64,000 bases of DNA, taken from a virus (taxonomy: Duplodnaviria; Caudoviricetes). Position 1 is the stretch's first letter. Each line of letters opens with the position of its first letter. The position numbers and the translations under genes were made by a program. A model generated the notes under the pieces. It ran no database searches. It saw nothing but the letters and a program-made list of their open reading frames with translations, and was not told where the DNA came from. The stretch covers positions 1 to 64,000 of the IMG/VR virus record IMGVR_UViG_3300033072_000326, one strand, 5' to 3'. Of the stretch, positions 1 to 17,477 are shown piece by piece.

Positions 1-277
1 TTGTCTGCTTGTATGCTTCAAAATAACACTCAAACTTCCTAAACTTATTGTAGATTTCACAAATACCCGTCTGAAATACTTTGTATCTTCCTCCAGCATA
101 AACGTGAACAACGATTTCTTCTTCTAGCTCGTCATTGCCAGTTTTCAATAGTCCACTAACACCTCTCCAGTGAATAGGAATTTTACACACAAACAATAGA
201 TTATCGTATTGTGTCGTATCTACACACCTAGCTTCATCACACGTCTCTTGCCACCATATTTTAATCTTCTCAAACAC
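1..277 (-). CDS. Hypothetical protein, 3' end runs off the window
   Basis: Manual translation from GTG at 277 (MFEKIKIWWQETCDEARC...), preceded by AGGAGAG; open to position 1. Confidence 0.5.
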   Translation of the reverse strand, partial: MFEKIKIWWQETCDEARCVDTTQYDNLLFVCKIPIHWRGVSGLLKTGNDELEEEIVVHVYAGGRYKVFQTGICEIYNKFRKFECYFEAYKQT

Positions 278-327
278 TTATTTCTCTCCTAAAATAATTA
301 CAAACAGCATGTTTTGTGTAAAAACAC

Positions 328-1375
328 TTATCTAATGTCGTCCCACATCTGAAACTCATATGTTAACGTCACAACTCCGTATTCTGACATGACATACACG
401 CTTGTGTCAACAACATCTGGCTCAGGGTCACGTAGACGAGCACGTAATGCTTTGTGTACACCATCCTCCCATGCGCCCTCTAGAATAACCCCAAGACAAA
501 TCCTGCTTCCGCTGATGATGTTCCAGAGAATGTAGCTGTCCTTGAAACACAGTGTCAGGTGGCCATCTCGTTTCAGTTCCATTGTTTGTTTCTTCCAACC
601 CCAACCCAACGATTGCATGGCCTCTACAAGAGGGAGAATGTCTCCTTTGTTTTTGTATGCAACAATACCAATACGCCCGTCAGCTTTGCCGCCGTCACGT
701 TTAGCTTTCTGCGTAATAAACGCTGCTTGATTTTTCATTCATTAATCTCCACAACAACAGAAACACCTGCTTTTGCAAGTTGTTCTTTCAGCCACCGAAT
801 AGCTTCTCGTTCACTCATCTCATGCACACCATCAGGTGCTGCATCCTCTTCATATTCTTGAGCGTAGACAGAAAGGTATGGCCCAACTTCCTCGTATTCA
901 GTTCCAAACCAACTGTGCCACTCAACTTCTTCCCCGTCAATTTCCAAACAATCAAAGTTGATGATATAGTTTCCACCACCAGAACAGCATCCATCACCAC
1001 ATGTCCACTCTTCTTCCCAATAGCCACTGAAATAATACGTTTTTATTGCTTCTCCTTCAACTTATTACACTTTTCAATAATATCTTCATCAACAGGTTCT
1101 GGAAATGTTAATATCTGTTTGAGCTTGTGTTCCACATCTGCGAAGTTGAGGGAAAAGATAATAACACCGTCTTTCAGCATAAGCATTTCCCACCATCTGA
1201 TGTCTTTACGCAATTCGTAGTACTTCGATCTGCCTTGTAGCTGGCATTGCCAAATGCTGTACTTCTCATGCTGGAACAACTTTGTCTCTGCGTAGTCTTT
1301 GTAGGTGTGTGTTTGCATAATATCTTTCATGTATTCGTCTACAATTTCATCACTCATATTTCCCCCTTTAAGCAA
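328..1375 (-). CDS. Three hypothetical early proteins (328-738, 735-947, 1043-1375)
   Basis: Tightly packed ORFs co-oriented with neighbours, with SD-like motifs; no recognisable domains. Confidence 0.6.
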
Positions 1376-1513
1376 ATGATGTCATAAGTATGATAACGGT
1401 GAGTGTAAATACCAACACCAGTCCCCCAGTCAAGAATAGCATCGCATAAATCGCAGCTCTGCCCAATTCATCTGCTCTTTCGTACTCTCGCTGCCAATAC
1501 TTGAAAAATGCAA

Positions 1514-1726
1514 TCATTTCTGCCTCTCCTCCTGCACTGCAAACAAGCCTCGGACAAGGTTTGCATTGTAATCCATATGACTCACTGTTTCAACCTCTGC
1601 TTTACAGTTGTTACAACGTAGACACATCAACCCTTCTGCAATCAATTGTACCCCTCGCACAACCAATGGTGCATCATAGTACACTTCCACCATGTAACCT
1701 GCACTACACCGTCTGCATTTCCTCAT
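1514..1726 (-). CDS. YgiT/MqsA-type zinc-finger protein (70 aa), stand-alone antitoxin N-domain-like
   Basis: ATG at 1726 after AAGGAGAGAAG. Sequence MRKCRRCSAGYMVEVYYDAPLVVRGVQLIAEGLMCLRCNNC has CxxC...CxxC spacing and G-x-MV, D-x-P, RG, G residues like the MqsA N-terminal domain. Confidence 0.7.
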   Translation of the reverse strand: MRKCRRCSAGYMVEVYYDAPLVVRGVQLIAEGLMCLRCNNCKAEVETVSHMDYNANLVRGLFAVQEERQK

Positions 1727-1892
1727 TTCTTCTCTCCTTGTAAAATACACATACAAAAGCATGTGCAAATAGCGATTGCTGGCACAGAAACACCCCTTAG
1801 AGCGACGATTGGCCTGTTTGGCTCCGGTTATGCGTCACAGCTTTAAATTGACGCGTTTAAACGCTGTTTCTGCGGCTTCTAAGATAGTGTGC

Positions 1893-1921
1893 ATATTAAC
1901 ACATGTGCTCTCTGTTGTCAA
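1893..1921 (-). promoter_or_regulatory. sigma70-type promoter
   Basis: TTGACA-17 nt-TAATAT on the minus strand, upstream of the MqsA-like gene. Confidence 0.7.
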
Positions 1922-1923
1922 CA

Positions 1924-2388
1924 CTAAAGTTGGTACACAACGGATTGGTAGTGGGTGGAGTTGTCCTCGATAATCGACGAGATGATGTTCCAATCACCAT
2001 TAGCCAGTCCAGCACCAATCATCGGCATCACCACCTCAAACTGTCTGCCATGTTTACCACATCTCTCATTCAGGTTTTTGAAGCACTTCTCAACAGCTTC
2101 ATAACTAACATACACAACATTCTTATCCCTTCCATAAAACTCTTGTGTGAGCATATTGCAAACGACAATGTTTCCACGTCTACTATACACAACATCTCCA
2201 AGAGAGAAATCGGACGAGAAGTATTTTTCTCGGTAGTCTTCGTAAGCCCAAGGAAATTGTTTCTTTATGTGTAGGGCAACACCACTGCCCATCACGCCCT
2301 GCATGTTACACCCGTGGGCAAAAATCTTCAAGCTGTTCTCTGGGAATTGATGGGTGAACATGTCACCTTTTCTATATTTGATTTTCAT
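1924..2388 (-). CDS. Macrodomain (Appr-1-p processing / ADP-ribosylhydrolase-like) protein
   Basis: KGDMF...AHGCNMQGVMGSGVALHIKKQFP...MPMIGAGLANGDW are macrodomain hallmark motifs. Likely start is ATG 2388. Confidence 0.9.
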   Translation of the reverse strand: MKIKYRKGDMFTHQFPENSLKIFAHGCNMQGVMGSGVALHIKKQFPWAYEDYREKYFSSDFSLGDVVYSRRGNIVVCNMLTQEFYGRDKNVVYVSYEAVEKCFKNLNERCGKHGRQFEVVMPMIGAGLANGDWNIISSIIEDNSTHYQSVVYQL

Positions 2389-2460
2389 TTTCTTCTCCTG
2401 TAAAGCAAAAAGACACACAACGCCAGTATAGGAGATGTGTGCCAATGTATCAACTAATTT

Positions 2461-2631
2461 TTACAGAAAAGTCTCTTCACCGAGAACATGTGTCCAGATG
2501 CGAGTGTCTTCATCCCAATTGCCTAGGAAACCTAGTGGATTGATTCGATAAACTTCGTCGTCATCCACACGGGCATATGGTTTGCCGTTCAGATAGATAA
2601 TATCACCTTGTTTTGTGTATTGATCTTTCAT
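2461..2631 (-). CDS. Hypothetical protein (56 aa)
   Basis: ATG 2631 with AGGAGAA SD, abutting the clpP stop. Confidence 0.55.
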   Translation of the reverse strand: MKDQYTKQGDIIYLNGKPYARVDDDEVYRINPLGFLGNWDEDTRIWTHVLGEETFL

Positions 2632-2632
2632 T

Positions 2633-3373
2633 TCATTCTCCTTGTTGTGCTTCTGGTTTCTTACGACTACGTTTTGCGTATGGGGGAGGAACGCTACGCT
2701 TATCTTCTTGTGGGGCAAGCGATGAGGCTTGTTGTTCTGCTTCTTCTTGCTGTTCGTCAACGTCACATTGCCCACACTCACAACCTTGTTCCATCTCAGC
2801 AGCAAGAAGCTCATTGCGTTTCACGAAACGATCTACAAACTCTTCACTGGTGAGCCAGAAGTCACGTCCATTGATTAGCTGCTCAATCTCTTCGTCAGAC
2901 AGGAATAGTCGGTAGTGTTTACGGAATGTATTCTCCATGTATTTAATACCGAACGTAGATGCTGCTCGGAATTCTGCAAGTGTACCGCTTTCACCCAAAC
3001 TGCCACAATGCAGCATCACCATTGCATCTTCACTCAGTTCAAAATAAGTGCCAGCAAGGAGGATTAGGCTTCCTGCAGAAGCAATCAATCCGCTGCCAAT
3101 TACACCCACTTCAACACCACGCTCTTGTGCCCGTTTGATTTCAAACAGAAGCGTATCTGTTGCCAACAAACTACCACCAACAGAGGATAGGTTGATGCGA
3201 ACAATGTCGTCCTGTTGTGCAGCATTCAGCACTTCAATAACACTCAAGAAATCATTGCTGTCCTCAATTGCACCGAAAAGATACGCAGTGTATTCGTTGA
3301 TGATGTGTTGTTTGTGTGTAACAGCAAACGGCATATTGTTTGGTTGTACGTCCATACCAGATTTGAATTTCAT
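2633..3373 (-). CDS. clpP: ClpP-like protease proteolytic subunit
   Basis: INLSSVGG, IASAGS (catalytic Ser), VMLH (His), GRDFWLT (Asp). Confidence 0.85.
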   Translation of the reverse strand: MKFKSGMDVQPNNMPFAVTHKQHIINEYTAYLFGAIEDSNDFLSVIEVLNAAQQDDIVRINLSSVGGSLLATDTLLFEIKRAQERGVEVGVIGSGLIASAGSLILLAGTYFELSEDAMVMLHCGSLGESGTLAEFRAASTFGIKYMENTFRKHYRLFLSDEEIEQLINGRDFWLTSEEFVDRFVKRNELLAAEMEQGCECGQCDVDEQQEEAEQQASSLAPQEDKRSVPPPYAKRSRKKPEAQQGE

Positions 3374-4357
3374 TTAGTTCTCCTTATTTGCATAGTTTAG
3401 CAGGTTTGTGTATACACGCTCATCCAAGAGGTGTTTGAACTTTTCTGCAATCTCAGATACACGTTCTTTCTTTGCTTTTGTATATGCCGCAACAGCTTCC
3501 TCAACAGTATCATATTGACCTAGGTACGACTGCTTTAATTTCCCACCTTTAGTCAACTCCCCTCGTTGTATTTGCGCGATATATTTGCACTTGTCTTTGC
3601 AGAAGTGTATACCAACAGGTAGGTCATTATCACTAAGAGACTTATTACTACCAGTAAACAGTGAATTGACTTCCACGGGTACTAAGGTACAAAAAGAAGG
3701 CCCATAAACCCTGTTACCTTCCACAAGAAGGTCTTTGTCAACATGTAGCCCCTTACCTACATGAGGTTGTGAGTAGTACCATTCGGCAAAAACCTGAAAA
3801 TTATGCCATGCGGAATCCACCGTACAATCTTTGTAGGAGGTGCTACCTTGCTTCTCTCGCCATCCAGTGTTGTAGCACCTTTTCATGATACCTAGCCACA
3901 CCTCGTAAGCCTCTGAGTTTTTGCCAGATGAGTCCCGCGAAGGGTATGGTCCAACACCAAAATAGCCTACACCAGATGCTTTTGGACTAAAAGGGTCACG
4001 AATCGAACCCAACCTTACTGACTTAAGATCAGTTGTTGTTTCGTAACCGGTTGCAGTAAACCTTACCTTTACGCGAACACTGGATATGTATTCTAGTACA
4101 GTAAAATCCCCACATTGAACACTTTGCATTGTGCTACCAACCAATTCCTTTCTGATGCGTACTGAATCGCAGCTCCCGCAAGACTTGGAGTTTCCACTTC
4201 GAAGATTGGCAACAGGTACAACAAGCTCATTGCCACAATCACAAACTACCTTCCATTGTCGGCCTTTACTTCTGCCATTTACAATAAGACTCCCAGCCGG
4301 CTCTACGACTAGGAGGCTACCGAACTTTTTACCAGTAAGGTTTACTACAGCCCCCAT
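3374..4357 (-). CDS. Free-standing HNH-type homing endonuclease (modular)
   Basis: N-terminal TGKKFGSLLV...CDCG...SKSCG module. C-terminal W..IMKRCY...WHNFQVFAEW...VDKDLL...CTLVP module followed by an AP2-like YLGQYDTVEEA. Confidence 0.8.
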   Translation of the reverse strand: MGAVVNLTGKKFGSLLVVEPAGSLIVNGRSKGRQWKVVCDCGNELVVPVANLRSGNSKSCGSCDSVRIRKELVGSTMQSVQCGDFTVLEYISSVRVKVRFTATGYETTTDLKSVRLGSIRDPFSPKASGVGYFGVGPYPSRDSSGKNSEAYEVWLGIMKRCYNTGWREKQGSTSYKDCTVDSAWHNFQVFAEWYYSQPHVGKGLHVDKDLLVEGNRVYGPSFCTLVPVEVNSLFTGSNKSLSDNDLPVGIHFCKDKCKYIAQIQRGELTKGGKLKQSYLGQYDTVEEAVAAYTKAKKERVSEIAEKFKHLLDERVYTNLLNYANKEN

Positions 4358-4365
4358 GCGTCCTC

Positions 4366-5205
4366 CTATTTGTGGTAATACAGTTTTGCCAAAGCACGAG
4401 TAATGTCGTCACGCTGAATGTCATCGAACGTAAATTCCACTACACCTACGTTATTGTACAGCTCAGACAAGTCCTGTTGATCGAGATATTCTGGTTGTTC
4501 TCGCACAGCATTCTCAAGCATCGTGATGGTTTTACGCAAGCCACTCTGTTCAGAGATGTGCGCTTGACGTTCATCACCTGTACTAATCAGGCAAGCATTT
4601 TGACCAACTCGTGTCAGCACCATCTCATACTGATCTTCAGTCAGACCTTGGCACTCTTCCAGAATTACGACACAGTTTTCAAAAGAATAGCCACGAAGGT
4701 ATTCAATACTTGCCAACTCGATAATCTTCTTGTCTAGACAATACTTAGTGAAACCCTTTCCCAGAAACTTCTCTAGGTGGCAGATTGTCTGTCCGAACAA
4801 AATCAGAAGCTTGGCGTGCAAATCCCCCGGTACAGCGCCATGACTCTTGCCACAAGACACGTTAGGACGTAGCAAAAACACTTTCTCTGTTTTACGTTCT
4901 TTAAGCATTTGTGCTGCATGATAGGCTGCAACGATCGATTTACCTGCCCCTACTGCGCCGATCCCCCAGATTAGTTTACGCCCTTCCCGCATGTAACGTA
5001 GGAAGCGTTTCTGATTATCAGATCGTGGATGGAACTCCATGCCTTTTTCCGGCATGTAGATTTCTTCTACAGCAAACTTCTCTTTGTGCGTAGCTGGAAT
5101 GCCGTTCTCCAGTTTAGCAGCTCGTGTCTTGCGAGCTTTACGTGCCTTACGTGGACGAACGATAGATTCGTCAATACCCATTTCAATCTCTTCTTCATAT
5201 GTCAT
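4366..5205 (-). CDS. phoH: PhoH-family ATPase
   Basis: Walker A GAVGAGKS, YLRGYSF, ILEECQ, GDERQ. Likely start is ATG 5205. Confidence 0.9.
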   Translation of the reverse strand: MTYEEEIEMGIDESIVRPRKARKARKTRAAKLENGIPATHKEKFAVEEIYMPEKGMEFHPRSDNQKRFLRYMREGRKLIWGIGAVGAGKSIVAAYHAAQMLKERKTEKVFLLRPNVSCGKSHGAVPGDLHAKLLILFGQTICHLEKFLGKGFTKYCLDKKIIELASIEYLRGYSFENCVVILEECQGLTEDQYEMVLTRVGQNACLISTGDERQAHISEQSGLRKTITMLENAVREQPEYLDQQDLSELYNNVGVVEFTFDDIQRDDITRALAKLYYHK

Positions 5206-5251
5206 TTGTTTCTCCTTTTGTTTTAGACAGCAAATAAGTGCCAACGTTTTG

Positions 5252-8200
5252 CTATTTACTTTCAATGTCATATTTGAAGTCAAAGTCAAAGACACCTGAT
5301 GCTTTCTCTACTGTTTCAGTATACGCCTTCTCGGCACACTTTTGTATTGCTGCGATATGTCTACAGAATAAATCCTGCTCGCTTTCAGGCCAGTCATAGA
5401 AACCTTTTGGTTTCTTTACTTCAACACTGATATAAGATTTAAAACTCATTCGTATTCTCCTTACTTCTTAACAGGCTTTGGCAAAAGTGGAACTTGTTTC
5501 ATATATTTCACCCCGCTATTTAGCATTTTTACTTGTCACTGGTAAGAGTGCAAATTCTACGTCAAAGTTTGGATTGAAAATATCAACTCTACCACACCCG
5601 TATTTACTGATTGCCCACACTAATTTATTCCTTGGGGCAGGGTTTTCAGGTGTGGGTTTGATGGTGTGGTACGGATGCTCTAGGTGTTTTGTTGTTGCAT
5701 GAAATACTTTAAATTCCATTTTCTTCTCCTCAAGAAATAGGCTGCCAATGAGACAGCCCTTGTTTTATGTTACATTAGGCATAACATACAGTTTAGCATC
5801 TTTGCCTGTATTCTCTTTAAATGCAGCCTTAAACGAAGGGATAAAAGCAATATCTTCGTCAGTTATTTCATTAAAAGTGTAATAGCCTTGGGCTACAACA
5901 AATCCAACCACACTATCAGAGTAGTCTGCATCGTAGTAAGGGCTGATACGGTCAAAAACACCTTCGTAGTTTTCGTAAAAGTCGCTACTGTCTTCACACA
6001 CCTCATCGAATGGCAAGCCGACAACAAGAACACCACTAATACTCATACCCATGTTATTTCTCCTCAGCAGCTTTACGACGTGGCGGAATACGTTTTGTTT
6101 GTTGTGCCTGCTCCAACACTTCTGGAGCAAACTCTGGTGTATTTGTATCTGGCTTCACAAGAGTCACAGCATACATATTACCGAAGTTATGTGCTGTGTG
6201 TGCTACATTTTCATTATCAAGCTCCCAGCCTTCTTTTGTCATACGGACAATTTCTTCTGTAAATTGTGCCAGAGAGGGTGTTGCAATTTGAAATGTTTGT
6301 TTCATATCAATTCTCCTTAGTCTGTTTCAGTGTTTGTGTATATTAACACATTTCCTATTTGTTGTCAATCAATTTATATGCATTTGCTTTAACATATTCT
6401 GACATGTGTTCTTTGAACAACACAACAGACATAGCTTTAGCAAATGTCATTGCGTGAATAATGGAATGCATTACAAGTCGTCCTCCGTTTCTAGTTGTTT
6501 ACGATAGGCTTCAAGCTGTTCCTCATATTCTTCAATGAATAAGATGTCTTGTTGAATATAATCTAGAATGTTCTGCATTGTCAACATGTGTTTATATGCA
6601 TGACTATCTTCTTCCAGCTCAAAATCATCAATAATGCTTTGTGTACTTGCAATACTTTCTTCCAAAGCCTCTGCATATTGTTTAAGCTGAGACAACGATG
6701 TGTTGATGTATTTAGTGGGCATTTATTTCTCCTTGTCTCTCACTGTATTCATAATCCACTCTTGAACGTCTGTATCATCAAAACATTTATCATACATCCA
6801 TTCAATGTGCGGTATCATACGTTCTAGCTTTTTCAAGCATCCGCCTTTACTCTTGTATGTACAACGTAAAAGTCGAGCCTCAGTCATAACTATATTACCA
6901 ATACCTTGAAAATTTACATTGACTTGATTAAATTTCTTTTTGGTTATAAACGCTTTTGTTATATAAAACCACCAATAACCTGTAACTGTATATTGAGGAG
7001 GGCAACAATTCAATATCCATCTTGTCTGTCCTTGCCTTACTTTCTTAGGCATTTTTCTCTCCTTTGTATATGAGTGTGACACCAAAAACTTCCACCTGAA
7101 TTCTACCACCCATCTTCACAAGATTACCATTTGTGTAAGGGAGCAGTGTTGGATGAGAGACAATTCCAACAAAATCTTTACGATTTAATACCACCTGATC
7201 TACACCTACTACAAACAAATCAATCAAATATGTTGGATAGGGATAACGCGTGTAATCATACATCACCTGTCCGGTGGAGCTGCTGATTGTTAAGTATTTT
7301 ACAGCCTCTTCGTTAGTCATGCTGTTCCTCCTCCAAAGAAAAATCCAATAGGTTTGTGGCATCGCCGTACATGGCACAAATCATCTCTTCATGACAAGAA
7401 CGAATGTTCTCAAGCCATTTAAGCATTTCTGTTTCTGTCTTTTGTTGTTTGTGCAGCTCTTTCAGACGACCTTTGACATATTCAACAAATTCCATACTCC
7501 TCTCATACGCGAACTTATCATTCTTGTTATAAGCTAATGTTGCATTGTCTTTACTCTTTTCCAGCAGATTTACATCCATTGAGATAAAACGCTTACGCTT
7601 CTCAATAGAGCTTTGCAGGTGGCGAATAAATTTCTCTACGTGTTTCATTACATAATCCTTTCAATCATTTTGACATTTTCAGAGCGGTCAGACAGAACAA
7701 ATTCTGTGGCTTCATAGCTTGTCTCAAAGAACACGAGCCACTGCTCAAATATTTCAACAGCATTTGAACTTGTGCGTCTTTCTTGGTCTTCAATATCAAC
7801 CCACCAATCTTCGTCCACTTGCTTTACAATGCGAAGTTCATTTTGCCAGTTTCGCCATACAAAATAGCTCATTATTTCTTTCTCCCTTTAATAGAAAACT
7901 TCTCAAGCTTACTTGAAAGTAGTATTGCAATGCCATTACCCATAGCTGAAATATTTAAGACAGGGATTAGTGCCAAAAGAATGAGATTGACAATTACATG
8001 TCCCGTAATATTCTCACCAATCCACCAATTCCCTACTAGAACGCCGACATTCCAAACCAAACACACTGCACATGAAACTAAATAGGCAATACCAAGGTTG
8101 TTGAGATATGTTGCAAATTCTTCCATTACGTCTCCTCCACAAATTTAGACAGGAATGCAATTATAGCAAAAGCTGCCTCTTTGTCAATATCAATTGTTTC

Positions 8201-11867: not shown

Positions 11868-13334
11868 ATGTCTCAAACAGTGTGGCCGTTGAATGAAAAC
11901 GGTGAGATAGTTGTAACGGCAGGGACAGGTAGTAGCAATGTCACAGGTTATTTGAGTCAAGATGTACTCCCGTCTGCGGGAGACGGAATACCTTTTGCAA
12001 ACGTACTAACCTCCGACAAGTTTGCAAGTCAATGGAATGGTTTTGGTGGGAACGCAAATGGTGTAACAACTGTTTTTATCGGGGATTCCATTACAGCTAA
12101 CGGTTGGTTGTCCAACCTTGCAAGAGACACATCTTCACCTACAGGTATATTCTACTACGATGATGGTAGTGCATCTGGTGTTCGTTTTGCCCGTACAGAA
12201 GATTATGGGTTTTCCGCGTGGTGCCATTTCTTTTCTAATGGCGGTGTAGGGGAGTTTGTAAACTCTGGTATTGGTGGTAACACAACAACACAAATTCTTG
12301 CACGAGTAGATTCCGATGTTTTAGCGTACAACCCATTACTTATTGTTGATGAGTGCGGTACAAATGATGTTATTGCTGGCGCATCCTCAGCCGACATTAT
12401 TGCACGTAAAACAGCATTGATTGAGAAATACAGATCAATAGGTGCAAAAATCGTACTTGTTGATATTGCTCCTCGTTCTGGTTTTGACACGGCAATGAAA
12501 GCTGTCGCTGTTGCTGTCAACAAATGGATGTATTCACTACCTAGAAAAAATCGTGACATAACTGTTTTCTCCATGTCTTCTATCTTGGCAGATCATACAA
12601 GTTCGTCTGGTGCTGTTAGTACGACAAAAACATTTGATAGCACTCACCCAAATAACGTCGGTGCTGTTATGATTGGCAAGCAACTGGCCGCCCATATTGA
12701 TAAGTTTGTTTTTGCACAGTTTAACGAAACCATCTGGACGGCAGACGCCTTTGGTACAGACAGTGCAAATGCTACCATTCGTAACAGTAACCCAGCTATG
12801 TACTATAGTACAGGCGGAACAGCAAACACAGGTGTAAGTGGTAGTGTGGCTAATGGGTTCACATGCTCTCGTCTTGCAGGTACACCAACTGTTGTTGCAA
12901 GTGTGGCGGAACGACCTGACGGAAGAGGCTACACACAGAGGTTGGTGATTACATTCGGTGCTGCTGGAGATGCTGTTGAGTTCGGTATTCCGACAGGATC
13001 TTCGCGTTACCTTGCCGACGGTAGAAAAATATCAACATCATGTAATATCGACCTTGTTACTGGTAGTAATGATGTAGTCAACCGTCTTATTTTGTACACC
13101 AGTGCTGTTGTGTCTGGAGTCACTTATACGGCTACAGCAATGAATCAGCAGGATAGTACAGGCAGGGGCAACCTTCCAACTTCTTTGGGCATAAAAGGTA
13201 ATCTGTTAACACCTAAAATTCAAGTGCCAGCAGGTAGTGCAAGCGGGTTCAGTACACAGCTTCGTATTTATGCTAGCGCAGCTGGGACAGTGACTATTGA
13301 TCTATCTGAATATAAATTGATGCAGCATTTGTAA
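11868..13334 (+). CDS. SGNH/GDSL-hydrolase tailspike-like protein
   Basis: Blocks GDSIT (Ser), NSGIGG, GTND and DSTHP (Asp/His), plus a G/T/S/A-rich C-terminal beta-sandwich-like region. Confidence 0.8.
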   Translation: MSQTVWPLNENGEIVVTAGTGSSNVTGYLSQDVLPSAGDGIPFANVLTSDKFASQWNGFGGNANGVTTVFIGDSITANGWLSNLARDTSSPTGIFYYDDGSASGVRFARTEDYGFSAWCHFFSNGGVGEFVNSGIGGNTTTQILARVDSDVLAYNPLLIVDECGTNDVIAGASSADIIARKTALIEKYRSIGAKIVLVDIAPRSGFDTAMKAVAVAVNKWMYSLPRKNRDITVFSMSSILADHTSSSGAVSTTKTFDSTHPNNVGAVMIGKQLAAHIDKFVFAQFNETIWTADAFGTDSANATIRNSNPAMYYSTGGTANTGVSGSVANGFTCSRLAGTPTVVASVAERPDGRGYTQRLVITFGAAGDAVEFGIPTGSSRYLADGRKISTSCNIDLVTGSNDVVNRLILYTSAVVSGVTYTATAMNQQDSTGRGNLPTSLGIKGNLLTPKIQVPAGSASGFSTQLRIYASAAGTVTIDLSEYKLMQHL

Positions 13335-13338
13335 ACTC

Positions 13339-13366
13339 TTGACAAACTGAAATTCTGTGATACAAT
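13339..13366 (+). promoter_or_regulatory. sigma70-type promoter for the ncRNA/tRNA transcript
   Basis: TTGACA-16 nt-TACAAT with TG extension. Confidence 0.8.
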
Positions 13367-13374
13367 AGATTTAT

Positions 13375-13810
13375 GTAGAGAGGGAGAGACCACAACGCTG
13401 TCTGAAGCCATCGTTGTTTTCGATTTGCCTTCTTCTCTACTCATCACTTTGGATTGGGGGTTCTCGGTTGGGTGGTGGTATTGACCTTTGAGTCCTTTTA
13501 ACACGGTGAATGGCTCTGCGTGGCGACTGTACACGATATTCCAAACACCAACAGCACACATGCTGGCAGGACGCTGCAAAAATGTGAACGTGTGCTCTGA
13601 GATTCGTGAGGTGGAGGTGCTGGACATGATGTACGTTACCCAGAGCTACCTTCCTCTCGGAGACAAACGAAACGTGTTAGGTTGGGACTACCGAGTAGCT
13701 GCGCCAACAGTGAAAACGTAGTTGCACGAGTATGGCTTGAGTCTGAAAGTAACGGAAACAACTTAACATTCTTCTCCAAGCCCATCAGAAATGGTGGGTT
13801 TCAGGAAGAA
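13375..13810 (+). ncRNA. Candidate large structured non-coding RNA
   Basis: No credible ORF with an SD. Many nested helices, e.g. 13463-68/13690-95, 13491-13505/13673-89, 13508-16/13599-605, 13553-59/13590-96 and 13608-23/13640-56. Confidence 0.6.
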
Positions 13811-13817
13811 ACAATAA

Positions 13818-13893
13818 TCCGGTATAGCTCAGTTGGTAGAGCAGCTGATTTGTAATCAGAAGGTCGTGGGTTCAAGTCCTGTTACCGGAACCA
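13818..13893 (+). tRNA. tRNA-Thr(UGU)
   Basis: 76-nt cloverleaf, acceptor TCCGGTA/TACCGGA, anticodon loop TTTGTAA, T-loop TTCAAGT, encoded CCA. Confidence 0.95.
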
Positions 13894-13900
13894 GAACAAT

Positions 13901-13974
13901 AGCGGGTTCACAAGGTGTGACGCCAGTCTCATAAGCTGGTTTGGGAGAGGGTTCAATTCCCTCGCCCGCTACCA
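13901..13974 (+). tRNA. tRNA with CAU anticodon (Met or lysidine-Ile), short D-arm
   Basis: Acceptor AGCGGGT/GCCCGCT, anticodon loop CTCATAA, T-arm GAGGG-TTCAATT-CCCTC, encoded CCA. Confidence 0.85.
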
Positions 13975-13997: not shown

Positions 13998-14249
13998 ATG
14001 AAACTGCTTAAAGTCGGTGGAGAATGGTGCTCTAGTTGTAAGGTACAAGAAGCCTTGCTGAAGCATCTGAATGTACTTGATAAATTTGAATACATCGACA
14101 TTGATGTAGATATGGAAACACCACTGAAATACGGTGTACGTTCCATTCCACAATTGCTTGCTGTTGACGAGAACGATAATGTAATTGCTTCGCTAGCTGG
14201 TGGTGCAACAAAAGAACAGATTCTCAATATGGTGGGTAAGTATGGCTGA
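13998..14249 (+). CDS. Thioredoxin
   Basis: WCSSC active site and YGVRSIP motif; ATG 13998 after GGAG. Confidence 0.9.
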   Translation: MKLLKVGGEWCSSCKVQEALLKHLNVLDKFEYIDIDVDMETPLKYGVRSIPQLLAVDENDNVIASLAGGATKEQILNMVGKYG

Positions 14250-14376: not shown

Positions 14377-14390
14377 TTTTAGAATAAAAC

Positions 14391-14497
14391 AACTCCTCTC
14401 TCCTCTCAGACGTGTTCTCTCCTCCGTTGCCTCTCCTCAACGTGACACGTCTTTTCGCCCTCTGTCCTTCTCTCCGAGGGCAGGGGGCTTCTTTTCG
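14391..14497 (+). ncRNA. Candidate sRNA with four anti-SD CUCUCC(U) motifs
   Basis: Promoter TTGAAG(14357)-17 nt-TAGAAT(14380). Stems 14408-15/14445-52 and 14425-29/14438-42. 11-bp terminator stem 14457-67/14478-88 followed by a U-rich tail. Confidence 0.7.
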
Positions 14498-14518: not shown

Positions 14519-15065
14519 ATGAATAAAAAACAATTACGTCTTGTACGACAAGATGGCCTAACATCTCTACGTATTGTCCTCGTAGACAGTGAAGAGAATG
14601 TTGTACACATTGGTGATGAGCCATTCCAATTTACAGCTCCAGACATTGAAAAGCTAATGACATTGCATTCAGAAGCAGCTTTATGTTTTTCAAAGCCAAT
14701 TCTTACAATGCCAACAAAGCGTGGCACAAAAGGGAAGAGTTTGGAATGGACATGGCCTGAACAAGAAGAGGAAGAATATGAGTAATACATTCTTTGTCTC
14801 TGAAAGCTATGAGCAAGCGTATTATAGATATGTAGATGAAAGCAAGAAACATTTTGGTGCTAGAGGGTATATAGCTAATGCTTCTTCGCTGACATTCTCT
14901 GTGAATGAAGATAGGTATGTTTGTATTGACATGCAAGGGTTTATTAGTAGGCTACGAGCTGGTGAGATTGGTAAGGGTAGTTTGGTGGTGTTGACATTTA
15001 AGCCTGATGATGTTATAATGGCCTCTCTTAAGGAGTATAAGATTAATTTGATTGAGAGAGGATAG
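14519..15065 (+). CDS. Two hypothetical proteins (14519-14785, 14778-15065)
   Basis: Overlapping ORFs with SD-like motifs. Confidence 0.6.
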
Positions 15066-15067
15066 AT

Positions 15068-15820
15068 ATGCCAAAAGCTTTAGACATCACTGGTGAGAAG
15101 TACGGTCGCCTTACGGCAATAGAGCTGAGTCATAGAAAGAACTACATGACTTATTGGAAGTTCATATGCGACTGCGGTAAGGAATGTGTTGTGGCACTTG
15201 GTAAGGCACGAAGTGGTCATACACGCTCTTGTGGTTGCTTGATGCGCGAAACGACTATTAAGCGTAGTACAAAACACAACATGGCTGGTACACCTGAGTA
15301 TGAGGCTTGGATTGACGCCAAGAAGCGTGTAGGCAATAAAAGTAAACGCTATAAGTATGCAGAGCATGGCATCGACATGCAAGAAAGCTGGAAGAAAGAC
15401 TTCATGGCTTTCTATGAATATGTCGGGCCGAAGCCAAGTCCAAAGCATTCTCTAGGACGTATAGACAACTTCAAAGGTTATGAAGAGGGCAACGTCCGTT
15501 GGGAAACCGATGAACAACAAGCTCGCAATCACAGTAAGCAAGTGAACAACAAATCTGGTGTTGTAGGCGTTCACTTCTACGTACCAAAAGGTAATAAAGT
15601 TGGTGTATGGGTGGCTAAGGCTGTGGTTGGTGGTAAAGCGTGTGTAAAGCGGTTCTCTGTCAAACAACTAGGGGATGAGCTTGCGTTTTTCTTGGCCTGT
15701 GAACAACGAGATCAATGGATGTTAATTAACGAAATGTGCTTCGGAGTACGGTTTGCAGAAACACATGGATTGAGTAAAGAAGAATATGACAAAACAAAAG
15801 ATGGTGTTTGCACCATGTAG
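15068..15820 (+). CDS. Free-standing HNH homing endonuclease with AP2-like C-terminus
   Basis: ITGEKYGRLTAI, CDCG, SCGC, SLGRIDNFKGYEEGNVRWET, SGVVGV; overlaps the terL start. Confidence 0.85.
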   Translation: MPKALDITGEKYGRLTAIELSHRKNYMTYWKFICDCGKECVVALGKARSGHTRSCGCLMRETTIKRSTKHNMAGTPEYEAWIDAKKRVGNKSKRYKYAEHGIDMQESWKKDFMAFYEYVGPKPSPKHSLGRIDNFKGYEEGNVRWETDEQQARNHSKQVNNKSGVVGVHFYVPKGNKVGVWVAKAVVGGKACVKRFSVKQLGDELAFFLACEQRDQWMLINEMCFGVRFAETHGLSKEEYDKTKDGVCTM

Positions 15821-15981
15821 TGAAAAACAAAAACTAATCCTACAAGAGGCAGGCGTAAACTGCCTTTTGATAGGTGGCGGGGCCGGCAGCGGGAAGACCC
15901 GCATGTGTCTTACCAAATTTCTATCTGAAATCAACAATCCACACGCGAAAATCGTTATCTTTCGGAGAACGATTCCTGAGT
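15786..15981 (+). CDS. terL: Terminase large subunit, exon 1
   Basis: Walker A GGAGSGKT, IFRRTIPE; splices in frame to exon 2 as PE-L-KIAGGIVDES. Confidence 0.9.
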
Positions 15982-16236
15982 TAAACGGCTCCTTCTAGTA
16001 GTGATGCTAGTCGATAACTTCTCTAAGTCGGTGAACCTCTCCTAGTGAGACAATACCGAGCAAGGAATATACAATGTATTCCGTGTGTGACGGTCAGCCG
16101 AAAGGCGTAGTTGCAAGCGCAGCGAAACGAGAAGCCCTTGCATTCGTGCAAGGTGAAGATATGACCTGAACTCTATGGTGACATAGAGCAGCTTAATAAG
16201 CGGGAAGAGGCGTAGCGCCCTCTTCTGAACATATTG
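15982..16236 (+). mobile_element. ORF-less group I intron in terL (255 nt)
   Basis: Exon ends in U, intron ends in G. P1 GAGU/GCUC; P AAGTCGGTGAA, Q AATACCGAGC; P7 ACGGTCA/TGACCT; S AAGATATGACC. Confidence 0.9.
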
Positions 16237-17477
16237 TGAAAATCGCCGGTGGTATTGTCGATGAATCGCATAAAATCTACCCTCATTTTGGTGGCAGGTA
16301 TGGTAAACAGGAGATGAAGTGGACGTTCCCTAGCGGAGCGTTCATTCAATTCCGTGGCTTTCCAGATGACTATCAAACACTGCAATCCATGCAGGCAACG
16401 CACGTGCTTATAGATGAGGCTGCCACGAATTGGCAGGAGCATGAAGTGTTGTTCCTTTTCTCTCGTATGCGTTCTGGTGAATACAAGGGTAAGCAAATGC
16501 TTATCATGTCTTGTAACCCTGAGTATAGTTCATTTCTACGGCATTGGGTAGAGTTTTCTCTAGATCAAGACGGTGTTCCTCACAAAGGTACAGAACATAA
16601 AGTTCGTTACTTCGTCAACCTTAGCGGTAAGATGTTTTGGGCTGATAGCGAAGAAGAGCTTTATGAAATGTGTGGTAAAGGGTTGGAACGTGGTAAGGAT
16701 TTTGTTCCTAAATCTTTCAAGTTCATTCCTGCAACAATTGAAGATAACCCGATTCTAATTAAGAACAACCCAGAATACTATGCATCCCTTCTTGCCCAGC
16801 CACGCGTAAACCAACTTCGATATTTAAAAGGCAGCTGGATAGCCCGTGAAGATAGTGGTAGTTTCTTCAAACGAAGCATGATTAACTTTGTAGATTTGCC
16901 ACCAACTGACCCAGACTTGAAGATTGTACGTGCATGGGATTTGGCTTACACTGTTCCAACAGAGACAAACAAAGACCCAGATTATTCTTGTGGGGTAAAA
17001 CTTGCTAGAGACAGACACGGACGTTACTATGTAATGGACGTTGTGTGGGAACGTATGCTGCATGGGGATATTATCAACCTCATTGCAAAGATTGCCTACG
17101 AGGATGGTATTGATGATTGTAAGGTAGTTTTGCCGCGAGATGGAGGCGCTGGGGCCTTCGTACACGGGCATATGAAGCGTGAACTTGGTGAGATGGGTAT
17201 CTACACTTACTCAGATGTTATGTCTGGGCATAGAAGTAAAGTGCAACGGTTCCTGCCTTTCTGCGCAGTAGTAGACAGTGGTGTTGTCAATTTGGTTAAA
17301 GGTAGCTGGAATGAACGATTCCTCACTGAATTGGAGTATTTCACAGGTGAACGTGGACGCCACGACGATGCCGTGGACGGGGTCGGTAGTGCCTTTAAGT
17401 TTCTAGCTAATGAACGATCTCTCCCACAATTCACCTTCGCAGATATGTCCCGTTCTTCTGGACTCCCCTCCCTGTAA
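16237..17477 (+). CDS. terL: Terminase large subunit, exon 2 (spliced protein 478 aa)
   Basis: Walker B VLIDEA, MSCNP, RAWDLA, HDDAVDG nuclease motifs. Confidence 0.92.

Follow-up and report, generated by a model that had tools for sequence, protein, structure and literature searches.

Positions 13373-13817 of the window (the whole stretch of DNA analyzed, 64,000 nucleotides taken from the start of an IMG/VR virus record of 88 kb) are the transcribed, noncoding, plus-strand leader of a small autonomous transcription unit in a phage. The order of this unit is σ70 promoter, leader, optional tRNAs, thioredoxin-like gene (trx), small membrane open reading frame (ORF), and terminator; the leader itself is a chain of independently folding hairpin modules between two universal hairpins, H1 and H3. 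We are highly confident of this anatomy taken alone. The whole statement, in which the anatomy is joined to a mechanism of transcript stabilization and processing, we hold with modest confidence. Structured phage leaders, or 5′ untranslated regions (UTRs), are a known kind of element; this set of leaders is without an Rfam family.

The large terminase encoded in the window shares ~40% identity with its counterparts in Pseudomonas and Acinetobacter myoviruses of ~95 kb, which makes the window phage an uncultivated, distant relative of these. The leader is flanked on its 5′ side by a gene encoding a GDSL-hydrolase domain (11868-13334) and on its 3′ side by two tRNAs. Consensus σ70 promoters are scattered throughout the genome; the one that precedes the leader (13339-13366, plus strand), which the first-pass annotation had called strong, has the form TTGACA-16 nt-TG-extended TACAAT and matches the consensus at 11 of 12 positions. 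Its −35 element, TG extension, and TAnnAT are retained in all nine variants of the locus (the window and eight relatives, described below). Transcription is predicted to start at ~13373-13375. A candidate internal promoter in the module s1 was rejected for its wrong spacing.

Downstream of the leader, both ARAGORN and Rfam identify a tRNA-Thr (UGU) at 13818-13893 (plus strand). ARAGORN also calls a tRNA-Met-type (CAU) gene at 13901-13974 (plus strand), to which Rfam gives no tRNA match, just an 18.2-bit match to tmRNA, a family of the same clan; the L004 homolog of this tRNA scores 28.6 bits against a tRNA gathering score of 29. The CAU tRNA is atypical, and its CCA is encoded. The first protein gene of the unit is trx (13998-14249, plus strand; PF00085, E = 3e-7), which encodes an 83-residue protein with a WCSSC motif and with homologs of 79 to 93% identity. 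A small membrane ORF lies between trx and an intrinsic-terminator-like hairpin with a U-tract (14457-14497, plus strand), which closes the unit and is conserved in L008. We also noted a CU-rich stretch that, with this strong terminator hairpin, occupies 14380-14497, 3′ of the small membrane ORF, and is likewise conserved in L008. The 88-kb genome contains no further copy of the leader.

Relatives of the locus were collected by three routes: via the neighboring trx gene (one IMG/VR locus, a protein search, and contig look-ups), via a metagenome scan using the H3 pattern, and via searches with the spurious minus-strand ORF “proteins” that have been called over the leader. Together these yielded eight further distinct, metagenome-derived versions of the locus (L002, L004, L006, L008, L009, L010, L017, and L018). 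L010 is the same as L011 and L012, so that, including the window, we count nine leader variants. Measured from the predicted start through H3, they span 165 to 438 nt, the window being the longest. Other searches returned little. Rfam cmscan found nothing in 13375-13810 at the gathering threshold or at E ≤ 10, nor in the leaders of five relatives at E ≤ 1. A blastn search of 50,697 phage records matched tRNA alone and left the leader without a match. Scans of IMG/VR with the GDSL protein, trx, and terL, and with H2-s1, H3, M, and W patterns, gave one related contig or none, and GTDB genomes scanned for H2 were without a match. In the literature we found no direct precedent for the leader. The leader family is restricted to one small uncultivated phage lineage.

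H1 carries the strongest structural evidence. It is an extended hairpin of 24 pairs in two helices (13375-13440, plus strand), is present in all nine variants, and begins no more than 2 nt from the predicted 5′ end of the RNA; its onset lies 8 to 9 nt past the −10 hexamer in the window and 6 to 7 nt past it in the L002 group, the start site being a predicted one. The 5′ hairpin of the first-pass annotation is thus real and shows strong covariation: 10 of its 24 pairs have changed on both sides, and none of 500 shuffles did as well. In the nine-sequence alignment 97.7% of cells are paired (∼50% in slid controls), although this alignment was fitted to a covariance model and so somewhat favors the structure. 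In L018 the entire apical stem has been exchanged for other complementary sequence, while the 8-nt loop has been retained. The loop reads UCUGAAGC in the window and has the consensus UYUGAAGC. The H1 covariance model scores 61 to 101 bits on the plus strand versus 15 to 31 bits on the minus strand; this strand bias, together with the many G-U pairs, shows that the hairpin belongs to a plus-strand RNA. We also considered an 8-bp pairing between the H1 loop (CUGAAGCC) and H3 (GGUUUCAG) and rejected it: it occurs at about chance level and shows no covariation, and a local C-UGAA-G apex accounts equally well for the change seen in L004.

At the other end of the leader, H3 (13769-13810, plus strand; nine of nine variants) consists of 17 pairs with a 2×2 internal loop and a GNRA tetraloop, which is GAAA in the window and L002 and GAGA in the other seven variants. 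The hairpin proposed earlier at 13778-13801 turned out to be its upper stem. H3 always lies directly 5′ of either the first tRNA or the trx Shine-Dalgarno sequence (SD). It is near-invariant and more conserved than the neighboring coding DNA, with a mean pairwise identity of 96.7% versus 87.4% for trx. No double compensatory changes are found; since H3 hardly varies, its fold is argued from conservation, not covariation.

H1 and H3 alone are universal in the nine variants; inner modules and tRNAs come and go from one relative to another. The optional inner modules are H2, s1, M, X, a small hairpin with a UAGC loop, and W, the last found in the window only. H2 (13442-13477, plus strand), present in eight of nine variants, forms a G-U-rich hairpin in which G-U or U-G accounts for 7 of the 15 pairs; 97.5% of its cells are paired, and across H2 and H3 pairing is retained in 97.5 to 98.5%. 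Three one-sided changes in H2 all keep the pairing, and there is no double change; its G-U content means that it pairs on the plus strand only. H2 is followed by s1 (13478-13504, plus strand), a predicted single-stranded, U-rich linker that is near-invariant in the window, L002, L017, and L018. It contains a boxA-like sequence, UCCUUUUAACAC, which we rejected as a conserved antitermination box: it agrees with the rrn boxA at 8 of 13 positions and is missing from five of nine variants. Module M (13505-13586, plus strand; five of nine variants) comprises three local hairpins (13505-49, 13552-65, and 13566-77). Only 4 of its 82 columns vary; there is one G-C to G-U change and one broken terminal pair, with no covariation and no double compensatory changes. 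The predicted folds of H2, H3, and M are therefore drawn entirely from conservation and one-sided changes. Recent phage-to-phage exchange, rather than functional constraint, could underlie the high identity seen in M and similar modules.

Module X is missing from the window; it lies at 2705-2822 in L006, 12317-12436 in L009, and 446-565 in L010. It is a self-contained, multibranch structure of ~120 nt in which a stem of 14 bp closes around four inner hairpins, and it shows one compensatory G-C to A-U change. The stem of the small UAGC-loop hairpin is entirely different in L009 and L010. W (13587-13768, plus strand) is an insert of the window alone, missing from all eight relatives and not found in IMG/VR. 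Modules and tRNAs are parted by AACAA-type spacers such as that at 13806-13817 (plus strand). In the window the motif occurs at 13757, 13810, 13895, and 13975 (4 observed versus 0.69 expected; P = 0.008), in all four cases at module junctions, and the pattern is repeated in the relatives.

L008 and L009 have no tRNAs, and in both the trx SD follows 9 to 10 nt past H3; among the remaining variants, tRNA sets differ in almost all. From the tRNA-less loci and the variable tRNA sets it follows that the leader is the 5′ UTR of a cassette running from promoter to terminator, into which tRNAs and inner modules alike have been inserted as cargo. The locus provides a clear example of phage tRNA genes carried within the structured 5′ UTR of a small transcription unit. 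The leader has no fixed tie to tRNAs. No tRNA-like module was found inside the leader by ARAGORN or by Rfam (E ≤ 10), just the two tRNAs 3′ of 13817. As a separate observation, tRNA-like sequences lie in L004 (3562-3644) and L010 (~744-846) between the called tRNAs and a ~75-nt module, Y, that these two loci share directly after H3. They have an acceptor-like stem, a T-arm-like GGTTCGA, and a CCA-like end, go uncalled by ARAGORN and Rfam, and may be degenerate or unusual tRNAs.

The first-pass annotation had described a structured, noncoding, promoter-driven RNA ahead of the tRNAs, which our analysis bears out, and had folded it into a single ornate RNA of ~400 nt with nested long-range helices and a pseudoknot, which it does not. 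The complementary segments listed for that fold all exist where they were placed, and the minimum-free-energy (MFE) structure of the window variant includes one of the proposed helices (13491-505/13673-89). However, the 3′ partners of all four long-range helices fall in W (13587-13768), the insert absent from the eight relatives; the hairpin at 13697-13723 and the G-U-rich helix fall there too. The 5′ strands, which belong to H2, s1, and M, are highly conserved even in relatives where no partner for them exists. One helix (13463-68/13690-95) uses nucleotides of the conserved H2, and the pseudoknot (13473-77/13546-50) also clashes with H2, while its 3′ strand is already engaged in the local fold of M. 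With its 3′ strands in W, its conserved 5′ strands unpartnered elsewhere, and the conflict with H2, the single ornate fold is not supported. Taken whole, the leader (441 nt) is no more stably folded than shuffled sequence (MFE z-score −1.51), and the central domain (13479-13769) has a z-score of −0.84. Complementarity of W to the modules upstream of it exceeds that of shuffled W only weakly (p ~0.04), and the ornate fold may form in the window variant alone; it is not the conserved feature. Covariation, sought as support for the structure, is present in H1 and lacking in H2, H3, and M, where no pair has changed on both sides. No Rfam family accounts for the region: cmscan matched neither GOLLD nor ROOL, and the models for RNase P RNA, tmRNA, and group I and II introns had no match inside 13375-13810. 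We consider it very unlikely that one large GOLLD/ROOL-like RNA is the functional fold here. The giant ornate RNA, an attractive reading, is not supported; what is left is an uncatalogued leader motif set, backed by covariation and made up of H1, whose loop is conserved, and the invariant H3.

A protein-coding role for the region is extremely unlikely. Three frames were considered: a 77-amino-acid ORF with a TTG start (13488-13721), a 25-amino-acid ORF (13510-87), and a minus-strand ORF (13268-13627). The last has some appeal, because the minus frame is fully open over the leader in three of seven variants and gene callers report it as a protein of 120 to 202 amino acids. But that frame is broken in the window, L004, L006, and L009 and traverses the plus-strand promoter, and the G-U pairs of the leader are compatible with plus-strand RNA only. 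The 25-amino-acid ORF is stopped early in L006 (TAT to TAA) and L017 (CGA to TGA); the 77-amino-acid ORF ends differently in every variant, and all four variable sites of M are nonsynonymous in its frame. None of the frames has a Pfam match. With their frames broken or not conserved among the variants, we rejected all three, in line with the first reading of the region as lacking a credible ORF. The open minus-strand frame is a side effect of the G/U-rich plus strand. The 120- to 202-residue “protein” placed over the leader by public gene calls (L008, L009, L010/L011/L012, L017, L018, and window 13268-13627, minus strand) is a wrong gene call in public data.

What might such a leader do? We infer the ends, processing, and stability of its transcript, and our proposal for its mechanism is a tentative one, to which we give somewhat less than even weight. 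A stable hairpin at the extreme 5′ end of an RNA is a classic shield against RppH/RNase E-dependent decay, and the roles of 5′-terminal hairpins, of RNase P, and of 3′ hairpins are established in E. coli RNA decay. By analogy, H1 would serve as a 5′-terminal stem-loop that shields the transcript from 5′-end-dependent decay (RppH/RNase E) in the manner of ompA. Where tRNAs lie downstream, the leader would be freed by RNase P cleavage at the 5′ end of the first tRNA; H3 would then protect its 3′ end, once trimmed, from exonucleases, and the leader would accumulate as a stable by-product RNA with its optional modules (~440 nt in the window and 165 to 420 nt elsewhere). In tRNA-less variants, H1 and H3 would together form a two-hairpin, ompA-like stabilizing 5′ UTR for trx. 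A pure stabilizer role leaves the conserved loop of H1 and the invariant strands and loops of H3 unexplained; to judge from their sequence conservation, these features suggest an additional sequence-specific partner, a protein or an RNase.

Other explanations can be weighed against this one. The first is that the leader regulates in cis, either because H1 modifies RNA polymerase as put RNAs do, to allow read-through of the terminator, or because H3 controls trx translation, its 5′ strand (UUCUCC) being able to pair either with GGAAGAA, the 3′ strand of the same hairpin, or with GGAGA, the SD of trx. H1 does lie directly past the promoter and has a conserved loop sequence, and the genes at 14519-15065, beyond the terminator at 14457-97, lack a strong promoter of their own; in the tRNA-less variants H3 stands only 9 to 10 nt from an SD to which its 5′ strand is complementary. 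Yet H1 is one extended hairpin rather than the two-stem architecture of put. In seven of nine variants the gap from H3 to the SD holds one to four tRNAs (~100 to 510 nt), and in two of those seven other RNA modules as well; sequestration of the SD across a tRNA-filled gap is unlikely, H3 is invariant nonetheless, and neither alternative H3 pairing shows covariation. We regard cis regulation as unlikely. Equally improbable, in our view, is that the modules (s1-M, H2, X, and W) are the payload, small RNAs that a polycistronic precursor would release to act in trans as riboregulators, sponges, or decoys, with H1 and H3 a mere scaffold for their expression. The identity of M and s1 (95 to 100%, where the trx genes are ~87% identical), the predicted single-stranded and seed-like character of s1, the AACAA spacers that recur between modules as between tRNAs, and the self-contained X, with its closing stem and compensatory change, are all consistent with that idea. 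Against it, no inner module is universal (L004 and L008 are without most of them), no complementary target was found within the phage genome, and recent recombination may by itself produce the high identity.

A bolder version of the payload idea, which we think quite unlikely, would make the span from H1 to H3 an expression-and-processing landing pad: related phages would exchange AACAA-bounded small-RNA cassettes (H2, s1-M, X, and W) and tRNAs, and these would be freed as individual RNAs acting in trans (such as decoys or riboregulators), with the H1 loop and H3 bound by a specific phage or host factor. If the modules were indeed released small RNAs, the locus would show phage shuffling and expression of noncoding RNA cargo. 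Finally, conservation could reflect recognition of DNA by protein at a DNA-level element of the terminase region, such as a pac site or a recombination hotspot. The site does have terL on one side and a putative small-terminase-like gene on the other, both strands of H3 are invariant, and the locus is clearly an insertion hotspot; but the RNA-type covariation of H1, its many G-U pairs and strong strand bias, the G-U character of about half of the H2 pairs, and a consensus promoter directly upstream in every variant leave a DNA-level element highly improbable. 

Several known systems invite comparison with the leader. The 5′ UTR of E. coli ompA has a two-hairpin stabilizer layout, which the phage leader would share if transcription starts as predicted: H1 would then begin no more than 2 nt from the 5′ end, and the shortest variants (165 nt) have another hairpin beside the ribosome-binding site. 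The sequences are unrelated, however, H1, at 24 pairs, is much longer and the sequence of its loop is conserved, and the phage leader takes large optional inserts and tRNA genes. The tRNA cluster of phage T4 encodes species 1 and 2 (rnaC/rnaD), stable structured non-tRNA RNAs. These likewise are structured RNAs from a phage tRNA precursor, presumably freed by tRNA-processing enzymes, but they are distal in their cluster, whereas the RNA described here is a 5′ leader that is also present without tRNAs. GOLLD (RF01998) and ROOL (RF03087) are similarly phage-borne, noncoding, and tRNA adjacent; the leader matches neither covariance model, is much shorter, and lacks a conserved multidomain fold, being instead modular and variable in content. 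In E. coli, 3′ETS-leuZ is a transcribed spacer of a tRNA operon that acts as a sponge, and the leader resembles it as a tRNA-precursor by-product that could persist and act in trans, although it lies 5′ and the leuZ spacer 3′. The put antiterminator RNAs of phage HK022, two adjacent stem-loops, act in cis on RNA polymerase; like the leader, they are promoter-proximal structured RNAs in a phage operon with a terminator downstream, but the two helices of H1 are coaxial and make up one extended hairpin rather than two stem-loops.

Other insertions and rearrangements were seen in the window and its relatives. The large terminase gene of the window is split (15786-17477) into a 70-amino-acid N-terminal piece with the Walker A motif (15786-15998) and a 413-amino-acid remainder (16236-17477). 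The gap is ~237 nt and has no Rfam group I match; an ORF resembling an AP2-domain endonuclease (15068-15820) overlaps the terminase start. In L004, terL encodes 843 amino acids with a LAGLIDADG insertion. Sub-threshold Intron_gpI matches lie 3′ of trx in L008 (262-514; 41 bits) and L002 (5550-5911; 24.5 bits). In L006 (3164-4252), trx is broken after ~11 codons by a 280-amino-acid ORF (3193-4035) and resumes at ~4001-4252; this looks like a mobile endonuclease-type insertion. The ends of the virus record share diverged repeats of 90 to 94% identity (1-739/84560-85313, 1723-1903/85309-85489, and 5455-5709/87788-88042). The repeats, which lie within window 1-5709 and genome 84560-88042, do not amount to an exact terminal repeat and could stem from a diverged duplication or a chimeric assembly. 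Upstream of the leader, the 488-amino-acid gene with the GDSL-hydrolase domain is missing from L002, L004, and L017, and in L009 a remnant of ~30 codons (12113-12210) ends at the promoter; the promoter-proximal side of the leader is thus also a hotspot of insertion and deletion.
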